Under the pieces are notes generated by a model. The model was given only the letters and a program-made list of their open reading frames with translations, was not told the DNA's origin and did no database searches. 64,000 nucleotides of DNA from Escherichia coli 042 (GTDB lineage: Bacteria; Pseudomonadota; Gammaproteobacteria; Enterobacterales; Enterobacteriaceae). The DNA is taken from assembly GCF_000027125.1 (NCBI RefSeq), contig NC_017626.1; one strand, written 5' to 3'. Made by a program: the position numbers and the translations under genes. This document shows, piece by piece, positions 6,717 through 58,855 of this stretch. Positions within the stretch are counted from its first letter, which is position 1, and the number at the start of each line of letters is the position of its first letter.

Positions 6717-7769
6717 TCAGGCGATAGTAATTTTGCTATCGAGATAAACGTCCTGCACGGCGTTAATCAGTTTCACGCCGTCAGCCATCGATTTCTTGAA
6801 CGCCTTACGTCCAAGAATCAGCCCCATTCCGCCAGCGCGTTTGTTGATGACCGCAGTACGCACTGCATCGCTGAGGTCAGTTTCACCGCCTGCAGCACCG
6901 CCGGAGTTTATCAACCCTGCCCGGCCCATATAGCAGTTAGCTAACTGATAACGCACCAGATCAATCGGGTTTTCGCTGGTCAACTTGCTGTACACACGAT
7001 CGTCGGTATAACCGTAATTAATCGCTTTATAGCCGCCGTTATTTTCCGCCATTTTTTGTTTGACGATATCCGCACCTATAGTCGCCGCCAGATGGTTTGC
7101 CTGACCGGTCAGGTCGGCGGAAACATGGTAATCAACGCCATCTTTCTTAAAGGCGGAGTTACGCAAATAGGCCCACAGCACTGTCACCATACCCAGCTCG
7201 TGCGCACGTTCAAAAGCCGCAGAAATTTCTTCAATCTGGCGACGTGACTCTTCCGAGCCAAAATAGATAGTCGCACCAACCGCAACCGCGCCCATGTTGA
7301 ACGCCTGCTCCACGCTGGCATACAGCGTTTGATCGTAGCTATTCGGGTAACTTAGCGTCTCGTTGTGATTAAGTTTGACGAGGAATGGAATGCGATGCGC
7401 GTAACGCCGCGATACCGACGCCAGCACGCCGTAAGTTGACGCCACACAGTTACAGCCCGCTTCGATCGCCAGTTCAACAATGTTTTTCGGGTCAAAGTAG
7501 AGCGGGTTAGCGGCAAATGAAGCTCCGGCAGAGTGCTCAACGCCCTGGTCAACCGGCAGAATAGAAAGATATCCTGTGCCAGCCAGACGCCCGGTGTTGT
7601 ACAACGTCTGCATATTACGTAACACCGCTGGCGGGCGATTATTGTCAATCATCACGCGGTCTACGTAGTCATGTCCGGGGAGATAAAGCTGGTCAGAAGG
7701 AATAGTCATACAACGGTGCTGTAAAAGGTTGTCGGCGTCTTTGCCAAGCAACTGCGCAATATCTGTCAT
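6717..7769 (-). CDS. fbaB: Fructose-bisphosphate aldolase class I
   Basis: Class I aldolase-like sequence; the ORF track extends 24 codons upstream (to 7841) but the MTDIAQ start gives the expected length of about 350 aa. Confidence 0.88.
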
Positions 7770-8025
7770 TACTATGCTCCCGTAAATTCCGATTGGATAT
7801 CGGCTATGGATTGTCCTGGCCCGCCTTTTGCGGGCAATCATAATCCTGGTCGTTACGGGCGAGTTTTTCCATCTTTTGGATGTTTTTTCAGCGTTTTCTG
7901 TTGGCTCGATTCATCAGAAAAAATGTTAGCGCGGTCAAGTTTTCACCGCAAAGGTATTTAAAAGGTATTATTAAGTGGTATTGTCATCGCGTACCTTACA
8001 TTACCTGTCATGAAGGAATTAAAAG

Positions 8026-9303
8026 ATGAAAACAACAGCAAAGCTGTCGTTCATGATGTTTGTTGAATGGTTTATCTGGGGCGCGTGGTTTGTGCCATTG
8101 TGGTTGTGGTTAAGTAAAAGCGGTTTTAGTGCCGGAGAAATTGGCTGGTCGTATGCCTGTACCGCCATTGCGGCGATCCTGTCGCCGATTCTGGTTGGCT
8201 CCATCACTGATCGCTTTTTCTCGGCGCAGAAAGTGCTGGCGGTATTGATGTTCGCTGGTGCGGCGCTGATGTATTTCGCTGCGCAACAGACCACTTTTGC
8301 CGGGTTCTTCCCGTTACTGCTGGCCTACTCGCTAACCTATATGCCGACCATTGCGCTGACTAACAGTATCGCTTTTGCCAACGTGCCGGATGTGGAGCGT
8401 GATTTCCCACGCATTCGTGTGATGGGCACTATCGGCTGGATTGCCTCTGGTCTGGCATGTGGATTTTTGCCGCAAATGCTGGGTTATGCCGATATCTCTC
8501 CGACTAACATCCCGCTGCTGATTACTGCCGGAAGTTCTGCTCTGCTCGGTGTGTTTGCGTTTTTCCTGCCCGACACGCCGCCAAAAAGCACCGGCAAAAT
8601 GGACATTAAAGTCATGCTCGGCCTGGATGCGCTGATCCTGCTGCGCGATAAAAACTTCCTCGTCTTTTTCTTCTGTTCATTCCTGTTTGCGATGCCACTG
8701 GCGTTCTATTACATCTTTGCCAACGGTTATCTGACCGAAGTCGGTATGAAAAACGCCACTGGCTGGATGACGCTCGGCCAGTTCTCTGAAATCTTCTTTA
8801 TGCTGGCATTGCCGTTTTTCACCAAACGCTTTGGTATCAAAAAGGTATTATTACTTGGTCTGGTCACCGCTGCGATCCGCTATGGCTTCTTTATTTACGG
8901 TAGTGCGGATGAATATTTCACCTACGCGTTACTGTTCCTCGGTATTTTGCTTCACGGCGTAAGTTACGATTTTTACTACGTTACCGCTTACATCTATGTC
9001 GATAAAAAAGCCCCCGTGCATATGCGTACCGCCGCGCAGGGGCTGATCACGCTCTGCTGCCAGGGCTTCGGCAGTTTGCTCGGCTATCGTCTTGGCGGTG
9101 TGATGATGGAAAAGATGTTCGCTTATCAGGAACCGGTAAACGGACTGACTTTCAACTGGTCCGGGATGTGGACTTTTGGCGCGGTGATGATTGCCATTAT
9201 CGCCGTGCTGTTCATGATTTTTTTCCGCGAATCCGACAACGAAATTACGGCTATCAAGGTCGATGATCGCGATATTGCGTTGACACAAGGGGAAGTTAAA
9301 TGA
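8026..9303 (+). CDS. yegT: MFS nucleoside:H+ symporter family transporter
   Basis: 425-aa polytopic membrane ORF; gene order yegT-yegU-yegV. Confidence 0.85.
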   Translation: MKTTAKLSFMMFVEWFIWGAWFVPLWLWLSKSGFSAGEIGWSYACTAIAAILSPILVGSITDRFFSAQKVLAVLMFAGAALMYFAAQQTTFAGFFPLLLAYSLTYMPTIALTNSIAFANVPDVERDFPRIRVMGTIGWIASGLACGFLPQMLGYADISPTNIPLLITAGSSALLGVFAFFLPDTPPKSTGKMDIKVMLGLDALILLRDKNFLVFFFCSFLFAMPLAFYYIFANGYLTEVGMKNATGWMTLGQFSEIFFMLALPFFTKRFGIKKVLLLGLVTAAIRYGFFIYGSADEYFTYALLFLGILLHGVSYDFYYVTAYIYVDKKAPVHMRTAAQGLITLCCQGFGSLLGYRLGGVMMEKMFAYQEPVNGLTFNWSGMWTFGAVMIAIIAVLFMIFFRESDNEITAIKVDDRDIALTQGEVK

Positions 9304-10304
9304 AAACAGAACGTATTCTCGGTGCTCTTTATGGGCAGGCGTTAGGGGATGCGATGGGGATGCCCTCCGAGCTTTGGCCACGCAGCCGCGTTAAAGCACA
9401 CTTTGGCTGGATTGATCGTTTTCTGCCTGGACCAAAGGAGAATAACGCAGCCTGTTATTTTAACCGCGCCGAATTCACCGACGATACCTCGATGGCGCTG
9501 TGTCTGGCGGATGCGTTACTGGAACGTGAAGGCAAGATCGATCCAGATCTGATTGGGCGTAATATTCTCGACTGGGCGCTGCGTTTCGACGCCTTTAACA
9601 AAAACGTACTAGGTCCGACCTCGAAGATTGCGCTTAACGCCATTCGCGACGGTAAACCCGTTGCTGAACTGGAAAATAACGGCGTGACCAACGGCGCAGC
9701 GATGCGCGTCTCGCCATTAGGTTGTTTGCTTCCAGCGCGTGATGTTGATTCCTTTATTGATGATGTGGCGCTGGCCTCCAGCCCGACACATAAATCCGAT
9801 CTGGCGGTTGCGGGGGCGGTAGTCATCGCATGGGCGATTTCTCGTGCCATTGACGGAGAAAGCTGGTCAGCAATTGTTGATTCACTGCCTTCAATTGCGC
9901 GACATGCTCAACAAAAACGCATCACTACCTTCAGCGCCTCACTGGCAGCACGTCTGGAGATTGCGCTGAAAATTGTGCGCAATGCCGACGGCATCGAATC
10001 CGCCAGCGAACAGCTTTACCAGGTCGTTGGCGCAGGTACCAGCACTATTGAGTCCGTTCCGTGCGCCATTGCGCTGGTTGAACTGGCACAAACCGACCCG
10101 AACCGTTGCGCCGTCCTGTGCGCTAACCTTGGCGGCGACACAGACACCATCGGTGCTATGGCGACGGCAATTTGCGGCGCATTGCATGGCGTTAACGCAA
10201 TCGATCCTGCGTTAAAGACGGAACTGGATGCGGTAAATCAGCTTGATTTCAACCGCTATGCCACGGCGCTGGCGAAGTATCGCCAACAACGGGAGGCGAT
10301 ATGA
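9300..10304 (+). CDS. yegU: ADP-ribosylglycohydrolase family protein
   Basis: 334-aa ORF; start overlaps yegT stop (ATGA). Confidence 0.85.
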   Translation: MKTERILGALYGQALGDAMGMPSELWPRSRVKAHFGWIDRFLPGPKENNAACYFNRAEFTDDTSMALCLADALLEREGKIDPDLIGRNILDWALRFDAFNKNVLGPTSKIALNAIRDGKPVAELENNGVTNGAAMRVSPLGCLLPARDVDSFIDDVALASSPTHKSDLAVAGAVVIAWAISRAIDGESWSAIVDSLPSIARHAQQKRITTFSASLAARLEIALKIVRNADGIESASEQLYQVVGAGTSTIESVPCAIALVELAQTDPNRCAVLCANLGGDTDTIGAMATAICGALHGVNAIDPALKTELDAVNQLDFNRYATALAKYRQQREAI

Positions 10305-11266
10305 GCGGCGCTCGATTACACACGCTGCTGCCTGAATTAGCCACGCGTCAGCCGGTGATGGTCGTCGGCGCGGCGGTCATTGATGTGATCGCCGACGCTT
10401 ATGCCCTCCCCTGGCGTGGGTGCGATATCGAACTGAAACAGCAGAGCGTTAACGTTGGCGGCTGCGCACTGAATATTGCCGTGGCGTTAAAGCGTCTCGG
10501 CATCGAAGCGGGTAATGCCTTGCCGCTCGGTCAGGGCGTGTGGGCGGAGATTATTCGCAACCGGATGGCGAAAGAGGGGTTAATCAGCCTGATCGATAAC
10601 GCCGAAGGCGATAACGGCTGGTGTCTGGCGCTGGTTGAGCCGGATGGCGAACGCACTTTTATGTCATTCAGCGGTGTGGAAAATCAATGGAATCGCCAAT
10701 GGTTGGCACGATTAACCGTTGCGCCTGGCAGCCTGCTCTATTTTTCCGGTTATCAACTGGCCTCGCCCTGCGGCGAATTGTTAGTGGAATGGCTGGAAGA
10801 GCTGCAAGACGTGACGCCGTTTATCGATTTTGGCCCACGTATTGGCGATATCCCGGACGCATTACTGGCGCGGATCATGGCCTGTCGACCTTTAGTGTCA
10901 CTCAATCGTCAGGAGGCTGAGATTGCCGCCGAACGTTTTGCTTTATCCGCAGAGATAACAACACTTGGCAAGCAATGGCAGGAGAAATTTGCCGCGCCGT
11001 TGATCGTTCGTCTCGATAAAGAAGGCGCATGGTATTTCAGCAACGACGCTTCTGGCTGCATTCCGGCATATCCAACGCAAGTTGTAGACACCATTGGGGC
11101 GGGCGACAGTCATGCAGGTGGCGTACTTGCCGGGCTGGCCTCTGGTCTGCCACTGGCGGATGCTGTATTACTGGGCAATGCAGTGGCGTCGTGGGTTGTC
11201 GGGCATCGGGGCGGTGATTGTGCGCCAACGCGCGAGGAACTACTCCTCGCACACAAAAACGTATAG
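10301..11266 (+). CDS. yegV: PfkB/ribokinase-family sugar or nucleoside kinase
   Basis: 321-aa ORF with C-terminal GAGDSHAGG anion-hole motif typical of ribokinase family; start overlaps yegU stop. Confidence 0.85.
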   Translation: MSGARLHTLLPELATRQPVMVVGAAVIDVIADAYALPWRGCDIELKQQSVNVGGCALNIAVALKRLGIEAGNALPLGQGVWAEIIRNRMAKEGLISLIDNAEGDNGWCLALVEPDGERTFMSFSGVENQWNRQWLARLTVAPGSLLYFSGYQLASPCGELLVEWLEELQDVTPFIDFGPRIGDIPDALLARIMACRPLVSLNRQEAEIAAERFALSAEITTLGKQWQEKFAAPLIVRLDKEGAWYFSNDASGCIPAYPTQVVDTIGAGDSHAGGVLAGLASGLPLADAVLLGNAVASWVVGHRGGDCAPTREELLLAHKNV

Positions 11267-11986
11267 ATCGCTGCGACAGTGGCTGATGCTGTACTCAATA
11301 GGCCGTTGCTGTTGGTCAAGCGCCACTTGCTTGATCACCAGCACCGGTATTTTGCTATCTAACTGAATATGTGACTGAAACTCGGCATCCGGCATCCGGG
11401 CACTAACGCGGGAACGCGTACGTTGTGGGTAAATGTGCTGGCTGCGGAAGTAGTCATAAAGAGAAATCCCGATGGCATCAACATCATGAATTAAATGTGC
11501 CGGAACCCACGATTCCTCAATCGATACCGCTTCTTCATCGACATAGCGAATACGCTTAAGCAAAAAGACATCACTTCCCGCTTCGACCGCCAGCTGCTGC
11601 GCGACTTCTTCGGGACATTTCACGACACGCTTGTTAACCCATAGTGTATCGGGCTTTTTCCCGCGCAATACCACCTGCTGAGAAAAACCTCGCGCTTCTT
11701 TCAACGAGTATTCGAAGATGTTGTTGATCTGCGTGCCGTAACCACGCGAACGCGTCACCACGCCCTCTTCTTCCAGCGCCTGCATCGCCTTGCGCACCGT
11801 AATGCGCGAAACGCCGGTTAACTGACTTAAATCACGCTCACCGGGCAAAATATTGCCATGCTCCAGCACCCCGCTGCGCACGGCATTTTTTACCGTTTCG
11901 GCAAACTTAATATAAAGCGGCGTGTTATCCGCCGCTAAAATACGTTCGTTCAGTTGGGCAATCAGCTGGGTATGCGCTTGTTCCAT
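11240..11986 (-). CDS. yegW: GntR-family transcriptional regulator (HutC/UTRA type)
   Basis: 248-aa ORF with N-terminal GntR HTH; convergent with yegV, 27-nt overlap. Confidence 0.85.
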   Translation of the reverse strand: MEQAHTQLIAQLNERILAADNTPLYIKFAETVKNAVRSGVLEHGNILPGERDLSQLTGVSRITVRKAMQALEEEGVVTRSRGYGTQINNIFEYSLKEARGFSQQVVLRGKKPDTLWVNKRVVKCPEEVAQQLAVEAGSDVFLLKRIRYVDEEAVSIEESWVPAHLIHDVDAIGISLYDYFRSQHIYPQRTRSRVSARMPDAEFQSHIQLDSKIPVLVIKQVALDQQQRPIEYSISHCRSDLYVFVCEE

Positions 11987-12037: not shown

Positions 12038-12865
12038 TTAAGGCGTTTCTTTAATCCCATCAACGAATGCCTGCAACTCCTCCACCGTGCCATTAAACAC
12101 ATTAAAATCCACCGGACCATTAATGCCATCTACCTGTCCACGGTCGGAATGCTGCCAGAAGCGCCAGGCTATTCCGTCATTGTCCGGACGACGTTGATAA
12201 TAGTGAGCCACCCACCACGGATATTCATTAAAATAGCCCGCCAGATTCGAGTGATAAAAAACGGCTCCTGAGTAAATAATCGGCTTTTTTCCCGTGCGTT
12301 TTTCGACCATTTTTAGCCACTGACTTACCCGCTTGCGTAATTCTTTTGCCGATAATTTTCCCCGTTCTTCTACGTCCAGCACGGCAGGGAGATCGCCGTG
12401 GGCAAAATCCACCGTTTGCAGAAATAATCGCGCCTGAACTGAAGCGGATACCGACGGGGAAAAATAATGATACGCCCCGCGCAGCAGGCCATTTTCGCGG
12501 CTTAGTTGCCAGTTACGCGAAAAATAGGGGTCCACCAGCTTTTCGCCTTCCGTCGCCTTAATAAAGGCAAATTGTAAGCGAATACCGTTATCGCGCATTT
12601 TTGCCACCCGCTGCCAGTCGATCCGCTCCTGCCAGCGCGAAACATCTATTCCGTGAATGGTGTAACTGGCAGGAATGCGAATAGCGAAAGATTTAACCGG
12701 GCGATAACCGTAGAAGTGGATGTAGTCTTTAATCTGAATTGCTGTCGAATAGAAAAAATTCACCGTCTGACGCGGATAAATTGCAACGATGGAAATTAGC
12801 CCAAGAGCGCATAATAAAGCGGTGAATTTTTTTCGACTGGTGATTCTCAACTGCATTGGTTTCAT
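12038..12865 (-). CDS. yegX: Glycoside hydrolase family 25 (lysozyme-like) protein with N-terminal membrane anchor
   Basis: 275-aa ORF; hydrophobic N-terminus followed by GH25-like domain. Confidence 0.8.
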   Translation of the reverse strand: MKPMQLRITSRKKFTALLCALGLISIVAIYPRQTVNFFYSTAIQIKDYIHFYGYRPVKSFAIRIPASYTIHGIDVSRWQERIDWQRVAKMRDNGIRLQFAFIKATEGEKLVDPYFSRNWQLSRENGLLRGAYHYFSPSVSASVQARLFLQTVDFAHGDLPAVLDVEERGKLSAKELRKRVSQWLKMVEKRTGKKPIIYSGAVFYHSNLAGYFNEYPWWVAHYYQRRPDNDGIAWRFWQHSDRGQVDGINGPVDFNVFNGTVEELQAFVDGIKETP

Positions 12866-58682: not shown

Positions 58683-58855
58683 GATGAGCATTCAGATAGT
58701 GGTTCACGCGCACGGGTTGCGCACCGCCGGAGTAAGGATTTACTGAGGCTAGCGACGCCATCATAACGAGCAAAAAGTGCGATCGTCAAAGGAGAATCGT
58801 GAGGAAATGCTGCATTGCTGACATTTACGCCAGCAATGCAACACAAAAGTACTTT

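Follow-up and report, generated by a model that had tools for sequence, protein, structure and literature searches.

The question raised by the yegTUV locus of Escherichia coli 042, located in the 64,000-nucleotide stretch of DNA that was analysed (the window), is which compound is handled by a nucleoside permease, an ADP-ribosylglycohydrolase (ARH)-fold enzyme and a PfkB kinase encoded side by side. We give somewhat better than even chances to the reading that yegTUV is a YegW-repressed uptake-and-cleavage module for a non-canonical ribofuranoside, with the kinase acting before the hydrolase. As a preliminary description had placed them, yegT (8026-9303, 425 aa), yegU (9300-10304, 334 aa) and yegV (10301-11266, 321 aa) are located on the plus strand and yegW (ggaR; 11240-11986, 248 aa) on the minus strand. 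The ATGA overlaps claimed for both junctions were found at 9300-9303 (yegT/yegU) and 10301-10304 (yegU/yegV), and the checked coordinates confirm the 27-nt overlap of the convergent yegV and yegW 3' ends (11240-11266, assigned to neither strand). The regulator, called divergent in the title of that description, is convergent with yegTUV as its own text has it, while the gene truly divergent from yegT is fbaB. The family assignments (NHS permease, ARH, PfkB, GntR) are borne out by the profile matches.

As 4-base start/stop overlaps are common in E. coli operons, with thiM/thiD as an example in the same window, the ATGA overlaps by themselves give only a hint of an operon; close yegT-yegU-yegV junctions are seen again in Enterobacterales and Vibrio loci. 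The proposed operon is substantiated by a published Northern blot displaying a single yegTUV mRNA of 3.3 kb (PMC10819704). The 27-nt overlap was deduced for 15 further Enterobacterales loci, those with a YegV at least 65% identical, and the yegV-yegW pair has been listed as an excludon on the basis of RNA-seq coverage (PMC12288877). The locus was found in 5424 of 5426 complete E. coli genomes, with the region 100% identical to E. coli chromosomes; yegTUV with yegW is a core E. coli locus, which is already published.

YegW combines a GntR domain (wHTH, PF00392) with a UTRA effector domain (PF07702), which places it in the HutC subfamily. Renamed GgaR, it is a dedicated repressor of yegTUV, as reported from EMSA, Northern blot, RT-qPCR and ChIP-chip with one target only; yegTUV is derepressed about 30-fold in the yegW deletion mutant and undetectable in LB unless yegW is deleted (PMC10819704). 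The yegTUV operon is normally silent in E. coli. LB is rich in ordinary nucleosides, and the silence of yegTUV in this medium was counted in favour of a non-canonical substrate.

A candidate sigma-70-like yegTUV promoter (7942-7971, plus strand), retrieved by a consensus scan and defined by its match to the consensus (-35 TTCACC at 7942-7947, 18-nt spacer, -10 TATTAT at 7966-7971), falls in the ~190 bp upstream of yegT bound by GgaR in EMSA (PMC10819704). The candidate primary GgaR/YegW operator O1 (7950-7982, plus strand) matches the location of the published strong GgaR site (PMC10819704) and consists of three direct GGTATT repeats (7953-7958, 7964-7969 and 7977-7982) spaced by 11 and 13 nt, with the -10 hexamer contained in the second repeat. 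The paired-repeat pattern has 2 matches against 0.05 expected by chance. Across 18 aligned upstream regions, from the window and 17 Enterobacterales/Vibrio loci, the O1 block AAAGGTATTTAAAAGGTATTAT..TGGTAT is kept, with slight changes in the remotest loci, while the flanks diverge; the GGTAT unit is similar to HutC-type half-sites. The same alignment delineates a conserved 5'-UTR block GTACC...TTACCTGTCATGAAGGA (7991-8017, plus strand) with a Shine-Dalgarno-like AAGGA (8013-8017), the yegT ATG following 8 nt further on; as the reverse complement of a GGTAC half-site, the GTACC of this block may belong to the operator. A candidate secondary operator O2 inside yegT (8831-8861, plus strand; TTGGTATCAAAAAGGTATTATTACTTGGTCT), with GGTAT/GGTAT/GGTCT repeats at the 11- and 13-nt spacing of O1, is contained in the weaker GgaR-bound fragment (yegT ORF nt 571-869, window 8596-8894; PMC10819704), and its conservation is mostly accounted for by the conserved peptide RFGIKKVLLLGL. 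The conserved triple GGTAT covering the -10 element of yegTUV is, as defined in this analysis, a candidate operator.

What might be imported? YegT, an NHS-family (MFS) H+ symporter (PF03825 E = 1.6e-183; TIGR00889 score 653.9 vs cutoff 446) and predicted riboside importer, has a published crystal structure and, as purified protein, did not bind U, A, C or G in ITC; PDB 8ZOJ, a K267A variant, is near-identical. With respect to the NHS nucleoside:H+ symporters NupG and XapB, YegT shares the MFS fold and 27% identity with NupG (RMSD 1.57 A). R131, T135 and E255 are identical to the NupG ribose contacts R136, T140 and E264, and Q252 and the GXXXD proton site (G311-D315) are kept as well, whereas the base-contact positions W138, A226, Y229, H310 and Y314 are altered. 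The earlier proposal that an unusual nucleoside is taken up and catabolised thus gains circumstantial support from ribose contacts retained without the base contacts and from the ITC result on canonical nucleosides.

YegU (PF03747 E = 1.9e-66), an ARH-fold binuclear-metal hydrolase and predicted glycosidase on a ribosyl 5'-phosphate, has an AF2 model with pLDDT 97 whose best fold match is MJ1187 (1t5j), with an ARH-related protein of Thermus, ARH3 and DraG next in line. E24, T60-D61-D62, H164 and D280-T-D282-T283 align with ARH3 E41, T76-D77-D78, H182, D314, D316 and T317; across 28 homologues each of these YegU residues is invariant or reaches 90% conservation or more, apart from E24, which is only the majority residue. 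Judged by this alignment, every ARH catalytic and metal residue is retained in YegU. With DraG, ARH1, ARH3, Tri1 and the uncharacterised MJ1187, YegU has in common the fold, the catalytic Glu and the binuclear metal site, and chemistry at C1 of a 5-phosphorylated ribose would be expected for YegU as for this family. On the other hand, DraG, ARH1, ARH3 and Tri1 strip ADP-ribose from proteins, poly(ADP-ribose) or O-acetyl-ADP-ribose, while YegU belongs to an operon for small-molecule uptake and elsewhere occurs fused to a kinase. Non-aromatic YegU residues align with the aromatic pair that clamps adenine in ARH3. To our knowledge, the 5'' position is phosphorylated in all characterised ARH substrates, and the substrates of the characterised enzymes that we know of are alpha-linked ADP-ribosyl conjugates and not nucleoside monophosphates, so that the reaction proposed for YegU would be without biochemical precedent in the family.

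YegV (PF00294 E = 7.3e-56), of the PfkB/ribokinase superfamily and a predicted riboside 5'-kinase, keeps the Asp binding the ribose 2',3'-OH, the GG motif, the Asn, NxxE and the catalytic GAGD. The respective residues D28, G53-G54, N58, N202/E205 and G266-A-G-D269 are kept in at least 50 of 52 ARH-linked kinases, with D28, G54, E205, G266, G268 and D269 present in all 52. YegV has V26, C55 and A154 in place of RbsK N14, K43 and E143; the N14 position is hydrophobic in all 52 linked kinases, the K43 position is Cys in 43, and the E143 position is variable with Glu in 14. By residue comparison, YegV has lost the anomeric (O1)-side contacts of ribokinase and retained the ribose-2',3'-OH and catalytic residues.

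That hydrolase and kinase belong together is indicated by gene context. Within 78 loci from Proteobacteria, Firmicutes, Actinobacteria, Chloroflexi and Thaumarchaeota, a PfkB kinase is encoded no more than 4 kb from the YegU homologue in 59, and in 42 of the 48 with a homologue at least 40% identical. Nine of ten long homologues scanned are ARH+PfkB fusions, with both domain orders occurring; linkage and fusions argue for functional coupling of YegU and YegV. The transporter slot is filled by NHS (17 loci), NCS1 (23) or PnuC-family (13) carriers, and an ECF system adjoins one ARH+PfkB fusion. Linkage across phyla and riboside- or vitamin-type carriers in place of the transporter are further circumstantial support for an unusual nucleoside. 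Pnu carriers work by facilitated diffusion followed by trapping by a co-encoded kinase (PMC5749112), as in the PnuC-NadR and PnuT-thiamine kinase pairs, a design repeated in Lachnospiraceae where a PnuC-family carrier follows the YegU-YegV pair; this pairing speaks for the imported molecule itself being the kinase substrate. E. coli YegT is a proton symporter and not a facilitator, and the phosphorylated YegTUV product is predicted to be cleaved while the Pnu pairs build theirs into a cofactor. A conserved fourth gene indicating a given aglycone was not found among the related loci, and the hints from single loci conflict, a Leuconostoc locus carrying NadC together with an NrtR-like regulator and one of a Burkholderiaceae MAG an adenine deaminase; the statement that the substrate cannot be deduced from sequence still holds.

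Alternatively, YegU could split the unphosphorylated riboside into ribose and base, with YegV phosphorylating ribose or another product, the logic of Rih nucleoside hydrolases working with ribokinase. This order agrees with ribokinases as the top curated-family matches of YegV (TIGR02152 E = 5.4e-23; PDB ribokinases), and linkage and fusions are silent on enzyme order; we nevertheless regard it as unlikely, as YegV scores well under the ribokinase cutoff (81.8 vs 299.65), two of the three anomeric-side RbsK residues are consistently replaced in linked kinases with the third being Ala in YegV, the PnuC-type pairing implies trapping of the transported molecule, RbsK is already present in E. coli, and ARH enzymes, as far as we know the family, bind substrates phosphorylated at 5''. 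With the same chemistry as our preferred module, yegTUV could serve micronutrient salvage by freeing a valuable base, such as a vitamin or cofactor precursor; an NR/NaR-like riboside could yield a pyridine base, for instance, and an alpha-riboside the lower ligand of a cobamide. Typical vitamin/micronutrient carriers are PnuC, ECF and NCS1, and in one Leuconostoc locus the module comes directly after the NrtR-like regulator, an MFS carrier and NadC. Alpha-NAD+ is hydrolysed by ARH enzymes, and the ARH3 crystal with alpha-NAD+ (PDB 7arw) shows at any rate that ARH3 binds an alpha-N-ribosyl pyridinium. A purpose of this kind is quite unlikely, however, with a substrate-type GntR repressor instead of a vitamin riboswitch or NiaR/NadR, an NAD context in 1 of 78 loci only, PnuC and NadR already available for NR in E. 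coli and no downstream salvage gene conserved. A regulatory role for YegU in removing ADP-ribose from proteins or nucleic acids, in the manner of DraG, ARH1/3 and Tri1 and with transporter and kinase unrelated to it, is extremely improbable: besides Pfam membership and the intact ARH active site, DraG and Tri1 are the best, though weak, curated matches of YegU, yet it scores far under their equivalog cutoffs (79.7 vs 337 and 69 vs 490), the locus is without an ADP-ribosyltransferase partner, YegU is translationally coupled to a small-molecule kinase with which it is fused elsewhere, and the residues aligned with the ARH3 adenine clamp are non-aromatic.

The published reading is that yegTUV acts directly on ADP-glucose (ADPG) or glycogen precursors by import, production or turnover, with YegW/GgaR a dedicated ADPG sensor setting glycogen accumulation. 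ADPG at 10-100 uM, the sole effector shown, frees GgaR from DNA in vitro, while the only controls in this EMSA, ADP and glucose, do not (PMC10819704). Glycogen is ~2x at 6 h in the ggaR deletion, yegTUV mRNA is up ~3-fold in 1% vs 0.25% glucose, the yegV deletion is glycogen-deficient on ADPG medium, and NupG, an NHS relative, has been implicated in ADPG uptake. These glycogen phenotypes are the sole ones reported and count against a module for ribosides, as the only published physiology ties operon and regulator to ADPG and glycogen and not to nucleoside catabolism. Still, we judge direct action on ADPG very unlikely. ADPG has no ribosyl C1'' conjugate for ARH cleavage and needs no kinase, and glucose induction is just ~3-fold compared with 30-fold upon full derepression. 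As ADP-ribose, NMPs and riboside phosphates were absent from the effectors tried, ADPG may mimic the true ligand. Furthermore, the gut Firmicutes module has PnuC, NCS1 and ECF carriers with no glg among recurrent neighbours, and removing yegV may impair the 3' end of yegW, with which it overlaps.

To the published single transcript, YegW repression and two binding regions (PMC10819704), and to the likewise published lack of YegT binding to U, A, C or G, this analysis adds the intact catalytic motifs, the linkage and fusion of the enzymes across phyla, the transporter swapping and the conserved operator. A precedent for the favoured module, with a gene set as in yegTUV/yegW, is found in Salmonella STM4065-STM4066-STM4067 with the GntR repressor STM4068, comprising a permease, a PfkB kinase and an ARH-family protein (STM4067, putative ARH); aminoimidazole-riboside kinase activity has been demonstrated for STM4066, and an STM4067 deletion is attenuated in the pig gut. 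The permease and GntR repressor STM4068 of the STM4065-4067 operon were reportedly described by Dougherty and Downs in 2003. This is a different locus from yegTUV, with STM4066 (PDB 1TYY) distant from YegV (E = 6.9e-5). The three-part logic is also that of E. coli pseudouridine catabolism, in which a nucleoside carrier (PsuT, YeiM), a PfkB 5'-kinase (PsuK, YeiC) and a 5'-phosphate glycosidase (PsuG, YeiN) turn a modified nucleoside unusable by ordinary phosphorylases into ribose 5-phosphate and base. The parts differ, as PsuG is of the YeiN/indigoidine-A family with a fold unrelated to the ARH fold, PsuT is NupC-type while YegT is NHS, and YegV reaches 18 bits against a PsuK model cutoff of 540.

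For the uptake-and-cleavage module that we favour, we infer the kinase-before-hydrolase order, the 5'-OH as the phosphorylated position, the ribose 5-phosphate product and a non-canonical ribofuranoside as the substrate. YegW would bind the three GGTAT repeats overlapping the -10 element and a weaker site in yegT, and the ligand that releases it would probably be the phosphorylated intermediate or a closely similar compound. YegT would import the riboside by proton symport, recognizing ribose as NupG does but having a different base pocket, YegV would then phosphorylate the 5'-OH and thereby trap the compound in the cell, and YegU, as a two-metal hydrolase, would cut the C1' bond of the ribosyl 5'-phosphate, with ribose 5-phosphate and the aglycone as products.

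In Escherichia coli 042 (contig NC_017626.1), yegT (8026-9303), yegU (9300-10304) and yegV (10301-11266) are plus-strand open reading frames, with yegW (11240-11986) on the opposite, minus strand. The ATGA stop/start overlaps claimed in the preliminary description can be read directly at 9300-9303 between yegT and yegU (...GTTAAATGAAAAC...) and at 10301-10304 between yegU and yegV (...GCGATATGAGCGG...), each preceded by a purine-rich Shine-Dalgarno-like stretch, and a consensus scan did not show promoter- or terminator-like sites to be over-represented within yegTUV. The three genes have the characteristics of a single operon, namely one strand, overlapping stop/start codons and, according to the literature, one mRNA; the proposed co-transcription is borne out by these junctions together with a 3.3-kb transcript detected with yegT and yegV probes alike, and only upon yegW deletion (Saito et al., 2024, PMC10819704). 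The described 27-nt overlap of convergent yegW with the operon end is likewise correct, as yegV ends at 11266 and yegW at 11240, with the final eight codons of yegW and its stop codon located within yegV. The same overlap was inferred in 16 of 16 Enterobacterales loci whose YegV is 65% or more identical, and the gene pair appears in the ExcludonFinder list of overlapping transcripts (PMC12288877). The observations of the preliminary description are confirmed and its interpretation is supported in part; the 'divergent' GntR regulator of its title has to be corrected, as yegW is convergent and the divergent neighbour is fbaB.

The annotated fbaB start at 7769 leaves a 256-bp spacer to yegT (7770-8025); the mechanical fbaB reading frame extends over 6717-7841 on the minus strand (374 aa), and the RefSeq start at 7769 gives 350 aa (MTDIAQ...). 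On the same strand as yegW and 51 bp upstream of it, yegX (12038-12865, minus) encodes a lysozyme-like (GH25) glycoside hydrolase whose N-terminus includes a hydrophobic segment, and may be co-transcribed with yegW. The yegTUV-yegW segment matches E. coli chromosomes with 100% identity and is annotated there as yegT/U/V/W; of 5426 complete genomes of the species, 5424 contain it. Locus, operon and regulator are already published and annotated and, as a finding, ordinary.

Elsewhere in the window, a TPP riboswitch (RF00059, 14541-14637, minus, 71.8 bits) upstream of thiM-thiD, two genes which overlap by 4 nt, is the ordinary annotated thiMD leader; the adjacency of thiMD to yegTUV is not seen outside Enterobacteriaceae and was set aside as plain synteny rather than functional linkage. 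The OrzO-P antitoxin sRNA family (RF02083) occurs twice (37673-37746, plus, 91.7 bits, and 38281-38356, plus, 101.3 bits), which indicates a tandem zor-orz type I toxin-antitoxin locus, presumably absent from K-12. The Peptidase-S11 RNA motif (RF03039), a cis-regulatory candidate, scores 72.8 bits at 58687-58767 (minus), where the gathering score is 34.8.

YegW consists of a GntR winged helix (PF00392, residues 29-87) and a UTRA domain of the HutC subfamily (PF07702, residues 108-242). Renamed GgaR, the protein has a single genomic target in ChIP-chip, with a strong site in the fbaB/yegT spacer and a weaker one within yegT (ORF nt 571-869), and deletion of yegW derepresses yegTUV approximately 30-fold, leaves fbaB unaffected and increases glycogen accumulation (Saito et al., 2024, PMC10819704). 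In the spacer, the consensus scan identified a promoter-like TTCACC-18-TATTAT element (7942-7971, plus), which is overlapped by the three direct GGTATT repeats of the candidate primary operator O1 (7953, 7964 and 7977, plus), with the -10 hexamer within repeat 2; 0.05 paired GGTATT-type repeats are expected by chance. Eighteen upstream regions were aligned, that of the window and those of 17 loci in Escherichia, Citrobacter, Enterobacter, Cedecea, Mangrovibacter, Hafnia, Rahnella, Pectobacterium and Vibrio; the block AAAGGTATTTAAAAGGTATTAT..TGGTAT is conserved between diverging flanks and varies slightly in the loci that are furthest away. O1 is therefore the leading candidate for the operator bound by GgaR and fits repression through promoter occlusion. 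The repeat arrangement recurs with identical 11/13 spacing in the candidate operator O2 (TTGGTATCAAAAAGGTATTATTACTTGGTCT, 8831-8861, plus), which falls inside the published weaker GgaR-binding fragment; the conservation of O2 is not claimed as selection for binding, as the encoded peptide explains most of it. GGTAT repeat operators were found upstream of the ADP-ribosylglycohydrolase (ARH) gene in none of 57 loci from other phyla, and this operator is specific to Enterobacterales and Vibrio.

The overlap of yegV and yegW suggests two further consequences. Read-through from the derepressed operon would run antisense into yegW and, with about 10 repressor dimers per cell, could reinforce induction. 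As the 3' end of yegW lies inside yegV, a yegV deletion may alter YegW, a potential caveat for the published phenotype of the yegV deletion, which is among the glycogen-deficient mutants on ADP-glucose medium (Almagro et al., 2018).

The family assignments of the preliminary description, a nucleoside:H+ symporter (NHS), an ARH-type hydrolase, a PfkB kinase and a GntR regulator, to which the UTRA domain can be added, were all recovered by profile searches. YegT matches the NHS family (MFS, TC 2.A.1.10) over its full length (PF03825, residues 1-405, E = 1.6e-183; TIGR00889, 653.9, cutoff 446.1). In our alignment, R131, T135 and E255 of YegT correspond to the NupG ribose contacts R136, T140 and E264, the TM10 GXXXD proton site is kept as G311-D315, Q252 is also kept, and W138, A226, Y229, H310 and Y314 are changed relative to NupG. 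This reproduces the comparison in the NupG structure paper, which found the ribose contacts R136, T140 and E264 identical in YegT and the base contacts different. The structure of YegT has been solved (8ZOJ), and isothermal titration calorimetry with uridine, adenosine, cytidine and guanosine gave no significant signal (Xiao et al., 2025).

YegU scores 225 bits against PF03747 (cutoff 26.2) and is predicted by AlphaFold2 as an all-helical ARH fold with a pLDDT of 97 in the model built with a 28-sequence alignment, which was used instead of the single-sequence model (pLDDT 42). Foldseek matched this model to MJ1187 (1t5j, TM 0.82/0.90), ARH3 (0.75-0.79), a Thermus ARH-related protein and DraG, and none of these solved close relatives has a defined small-molecule substrate. 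With E41, T76-D77-D78, D314, D316 and T317 of ARH3 as the reference set for membership, E24, T60-D61-D62, H164 and D280-T-D282-T283 of YegU align with the ARH3 catalytic Glu and metal ligands; among the 28 sequences, 31-71% identical, D61, H164 and D282 are invariant and T60, D62, D280 and T283 at least 90% conserved, and E24 is the majority residue only. Non-aromatic residues occupy in the YegU alignment the ARH3 positions which we take to be adenine-stacking. A function as a DraG-like protein de-ADP-ribosylase, to which the shared fold might point, is most improbable; YegU lies far below the equivalog cutoffs for DraG (79.7 vs 337) and Tri1 (69 vs 490). Among the homologues listed for YegU, the matches were only Enterobacteriaceae orthologues of at least 82% identity.

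YegV belongs to the PfkB/ribokinase superfamily (PF00294, 190 bits) and falls below the equivalog cutoffs for RbsK (TIGR02152, 81.8 vs 299.65; NF008353, 58 vs 341). YegV and 51 further ARH-linked kinases were aligned with E. coli RbsK. The residues D28, G54, E205, G266, G268 and D269 occur in 52 of 52 linked kinases, and D28, G53-G54, N58, the NxxE motif and GAGD in at least 50 of 52, a level reached by each of the PfkB hallmarks of YegV (G53-G54, N202/E205 of NxxE and the catalytic G266-A-G-D269). The Asp of RbsK equivalent to D28 presumably binds the 2',3'-hydroxyls. N14, K43 and E143 of RbsK, assumed here to be contacts on the anomeric (ribose O1) side, are replaced by V26, C55 and A154 in YegV; across the linked kinases the N14 position is hydrophobic in 52/52, the K43 position is Cys in 43/52 and the E143 position is variable. 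Such replacements would be expected for a kinase that accepts ribose with a C1 substituent. By their conserved residues, both YegU and YegV look active.

The Salmonella operon STM4065-4067 has the same architecture as yegTUV, with aminoimidazole-riboside (AIRs) kinase activity of STM4066 and with STM4067 an ARH protein, deletion of which attenuates the organism in the pig gut. The relationship of YegV to the STM4066 kinase (1TYY) is only distant (E = 6.9e-5), which rules out orthology with the Salmonella AIRs kinase and indicates that the kinase-ARH pairing spans distinct subfamilies. PsuT/PsuK/PsuG follow the same logic as proposed for yegTUV, but the PsuG glycosidase is of the YeiN family, unrelated to the ARH fold of YegU, and the PsuK model NF007355 gives 18.4 bits on YegV (cutoff 540); as proposed, yegTUV would work like PsuKG without belonging to that system.

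An exhaustive search among 1.84 billion representatives returned 236 YegU homologues at E <= 1e-30. Nine of ten long homologues scanned are ARH+PfkB fusions, five in the order ARH-PfkB and four PfkB-ARH, with at least one in the cultured actinobacterium Arsenicicoccus piscis. P0162, a 692-aa protein from the same search, has two matched ARH stretches and is probably a tandem ARH duplication, not an ARH-kinase fusion. A genome scan provided 78 loci with a YegU homologue, taken from Enterobacterales, Vibrio, Bacillales, Lachnospiraceae, Negativicutes, Lactobacillales, Actinobacteria, Chloroflexi and Thaumarchaeota. According to tblastn, 59/78 loci carry a PfkB gene no more than 4 kb from the YegU homologue (42/48 for homologues of 40% identity or more), 44 carry a GntR/UTRA regulator in that range, and 53 a PfkB gene plus one of three carrier families. 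The carrier type varies with lineage: NHS (YegT-like) carriers occur in 17 loci, in Enterobacterales and Vibrio only, an NCS1 permease (PF02133) in 23, mostly between the ARH and PfkB genes (gap ~1.4-1.7 kb) and in the rest after the kinase gene, and a PnuC-family carrier (representative vs TIGR01528, 148, cutoff 42) in 13, immediately 3' of the kinase gene. An ECF transporter with T component adjoins one PfkB-ARH fusion, under a GntR/UTRA regulator. Pnu carriers are facilitators whose substrate is trapped by a co-encoded kinase (PMC5749112). Beyond carrier and GntR regulator, no recurrent fourth enzyme that would name the aglycone was found in loci with at least 40% identity.

Individual loci have further neighbours. 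In Leuconostoc holzapfelii (L042, ~4.5-11.5 kb) ARH-NCS1-PfkB comes immediately after an NrtR-like Nudix regulator (weak match), an MFS carrier of the aromatic-acid/H+ type and NadC (277 bits, cutoff 198), the sole NAD-metabolism context among the 78 loci. In a Burkholderiaceae MAG (L037) ARH-PfkB-NCS1 is followed on the same strand by an adenine deaminase (TIGR01178, 572 bits vs 472), a hint of an adenine-type aglycone for this lineage that is at odds with the NAD context of L042. Downstream of a PfkB-ARH fusion in L080/L081, same-strand genes for a phosphopentomutase-like metalloenzyme, a second NCS1 permease, a DeoC-family aldolase and alcohol dehydrogenases look like a pentose or deoxypentose-phosphate catabolic set.

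On balance, we lean towards a pathway under YegW control in which YegT would import a non-canonical riboside, YegV would add a 5'-phosphate and YegU would cleave at C1' to yield ribose-5-phosphate and the aglycone. This kinase-first order is favoured because of the pairing with Pnu carriers, the missing anomeric-side contacts in YegV and the phosphorylated 5'' position carried, to our knowledge, by all known ARH substrates; on the same grounds the reverse order, with YegU acting ahead of YegV on the riboside, is unlikely. Micronutrient salvage as the purpose of the pathway, a variant of the main reading, is also quite unlikely. A role of yegTUV in ADP-glucose and glycogen metabolism is the sole reading with direct experimental support, in that 10-100 µM ADP-glucose frees GgaR from its probe, an effect seen with neither glucose nor ADP (Saito et al., 2024, PMC10819704). 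This support comprises an electrophoretic mobility shift assay with two control ligands only and a 3-fold in vivo effect, and the reading fits neither the chemistry of the three proteins nor the cross-phylum contexts, which makes it improbable.

Candidate substrates of the riboside pathway are N-ribosides of non-aromatic or amidine/urea-type bases such as dihydrouridine, ring-opened nucleosides and aminoimidazole ribosides, pyridinium ribosides (NR/NaR-like), and alpha-ribosides such as cobamide lower-ligand ribosides. More tentatively, and with somewhat less than even confidence, YegU-type proteins might constitute an unrecognised ARH class of small-molecule ribosyl-5'-phosphate glycohydrolases. 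Coupled by pairing or fusion to a dedicated PfkB riboside kinase with a 'GGC motif', and supplied by four interchangeable carrier types, they would form a widespread gut-bacterial route for a non-canonical riboside beyond the ordinary nucleoside phosphorylases and hydrolases, and ADP-glucose would only mimic the true YegW effector. The literature surveyed contains no characterised YegU or YegV function and nothing on PnuC with ARH, papers later than those on the regulator and YegT assign no function to the locus, and NCBIfam (June 2026) and RefSeq give the yegTUV products generic names only.

The residual interest lies in the identity of the riboside and in YegU as a possible metabolic small-molecule ARH branch, and the comparative data narrow the substrate search and make the latter idea directly testable. 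Among E. coli core genes, yegT, yegU and yegV are three of those still without a known biochemical function; gut Firmicutes commonly carry the same kinase-hydrolase module, and a related module in Salmonella promotes persistence in the pig intestine. Should the proposed mechanism hold, the published ADP-glucose and glycogen phenotypes would become indirect effects, the ARH fold, known for reversal of ADP-ribosylation, would gain a metabolic role, and a new nucleoside-salvage or catabolic route would emerge, possibly for an abundant modified nucleoside.
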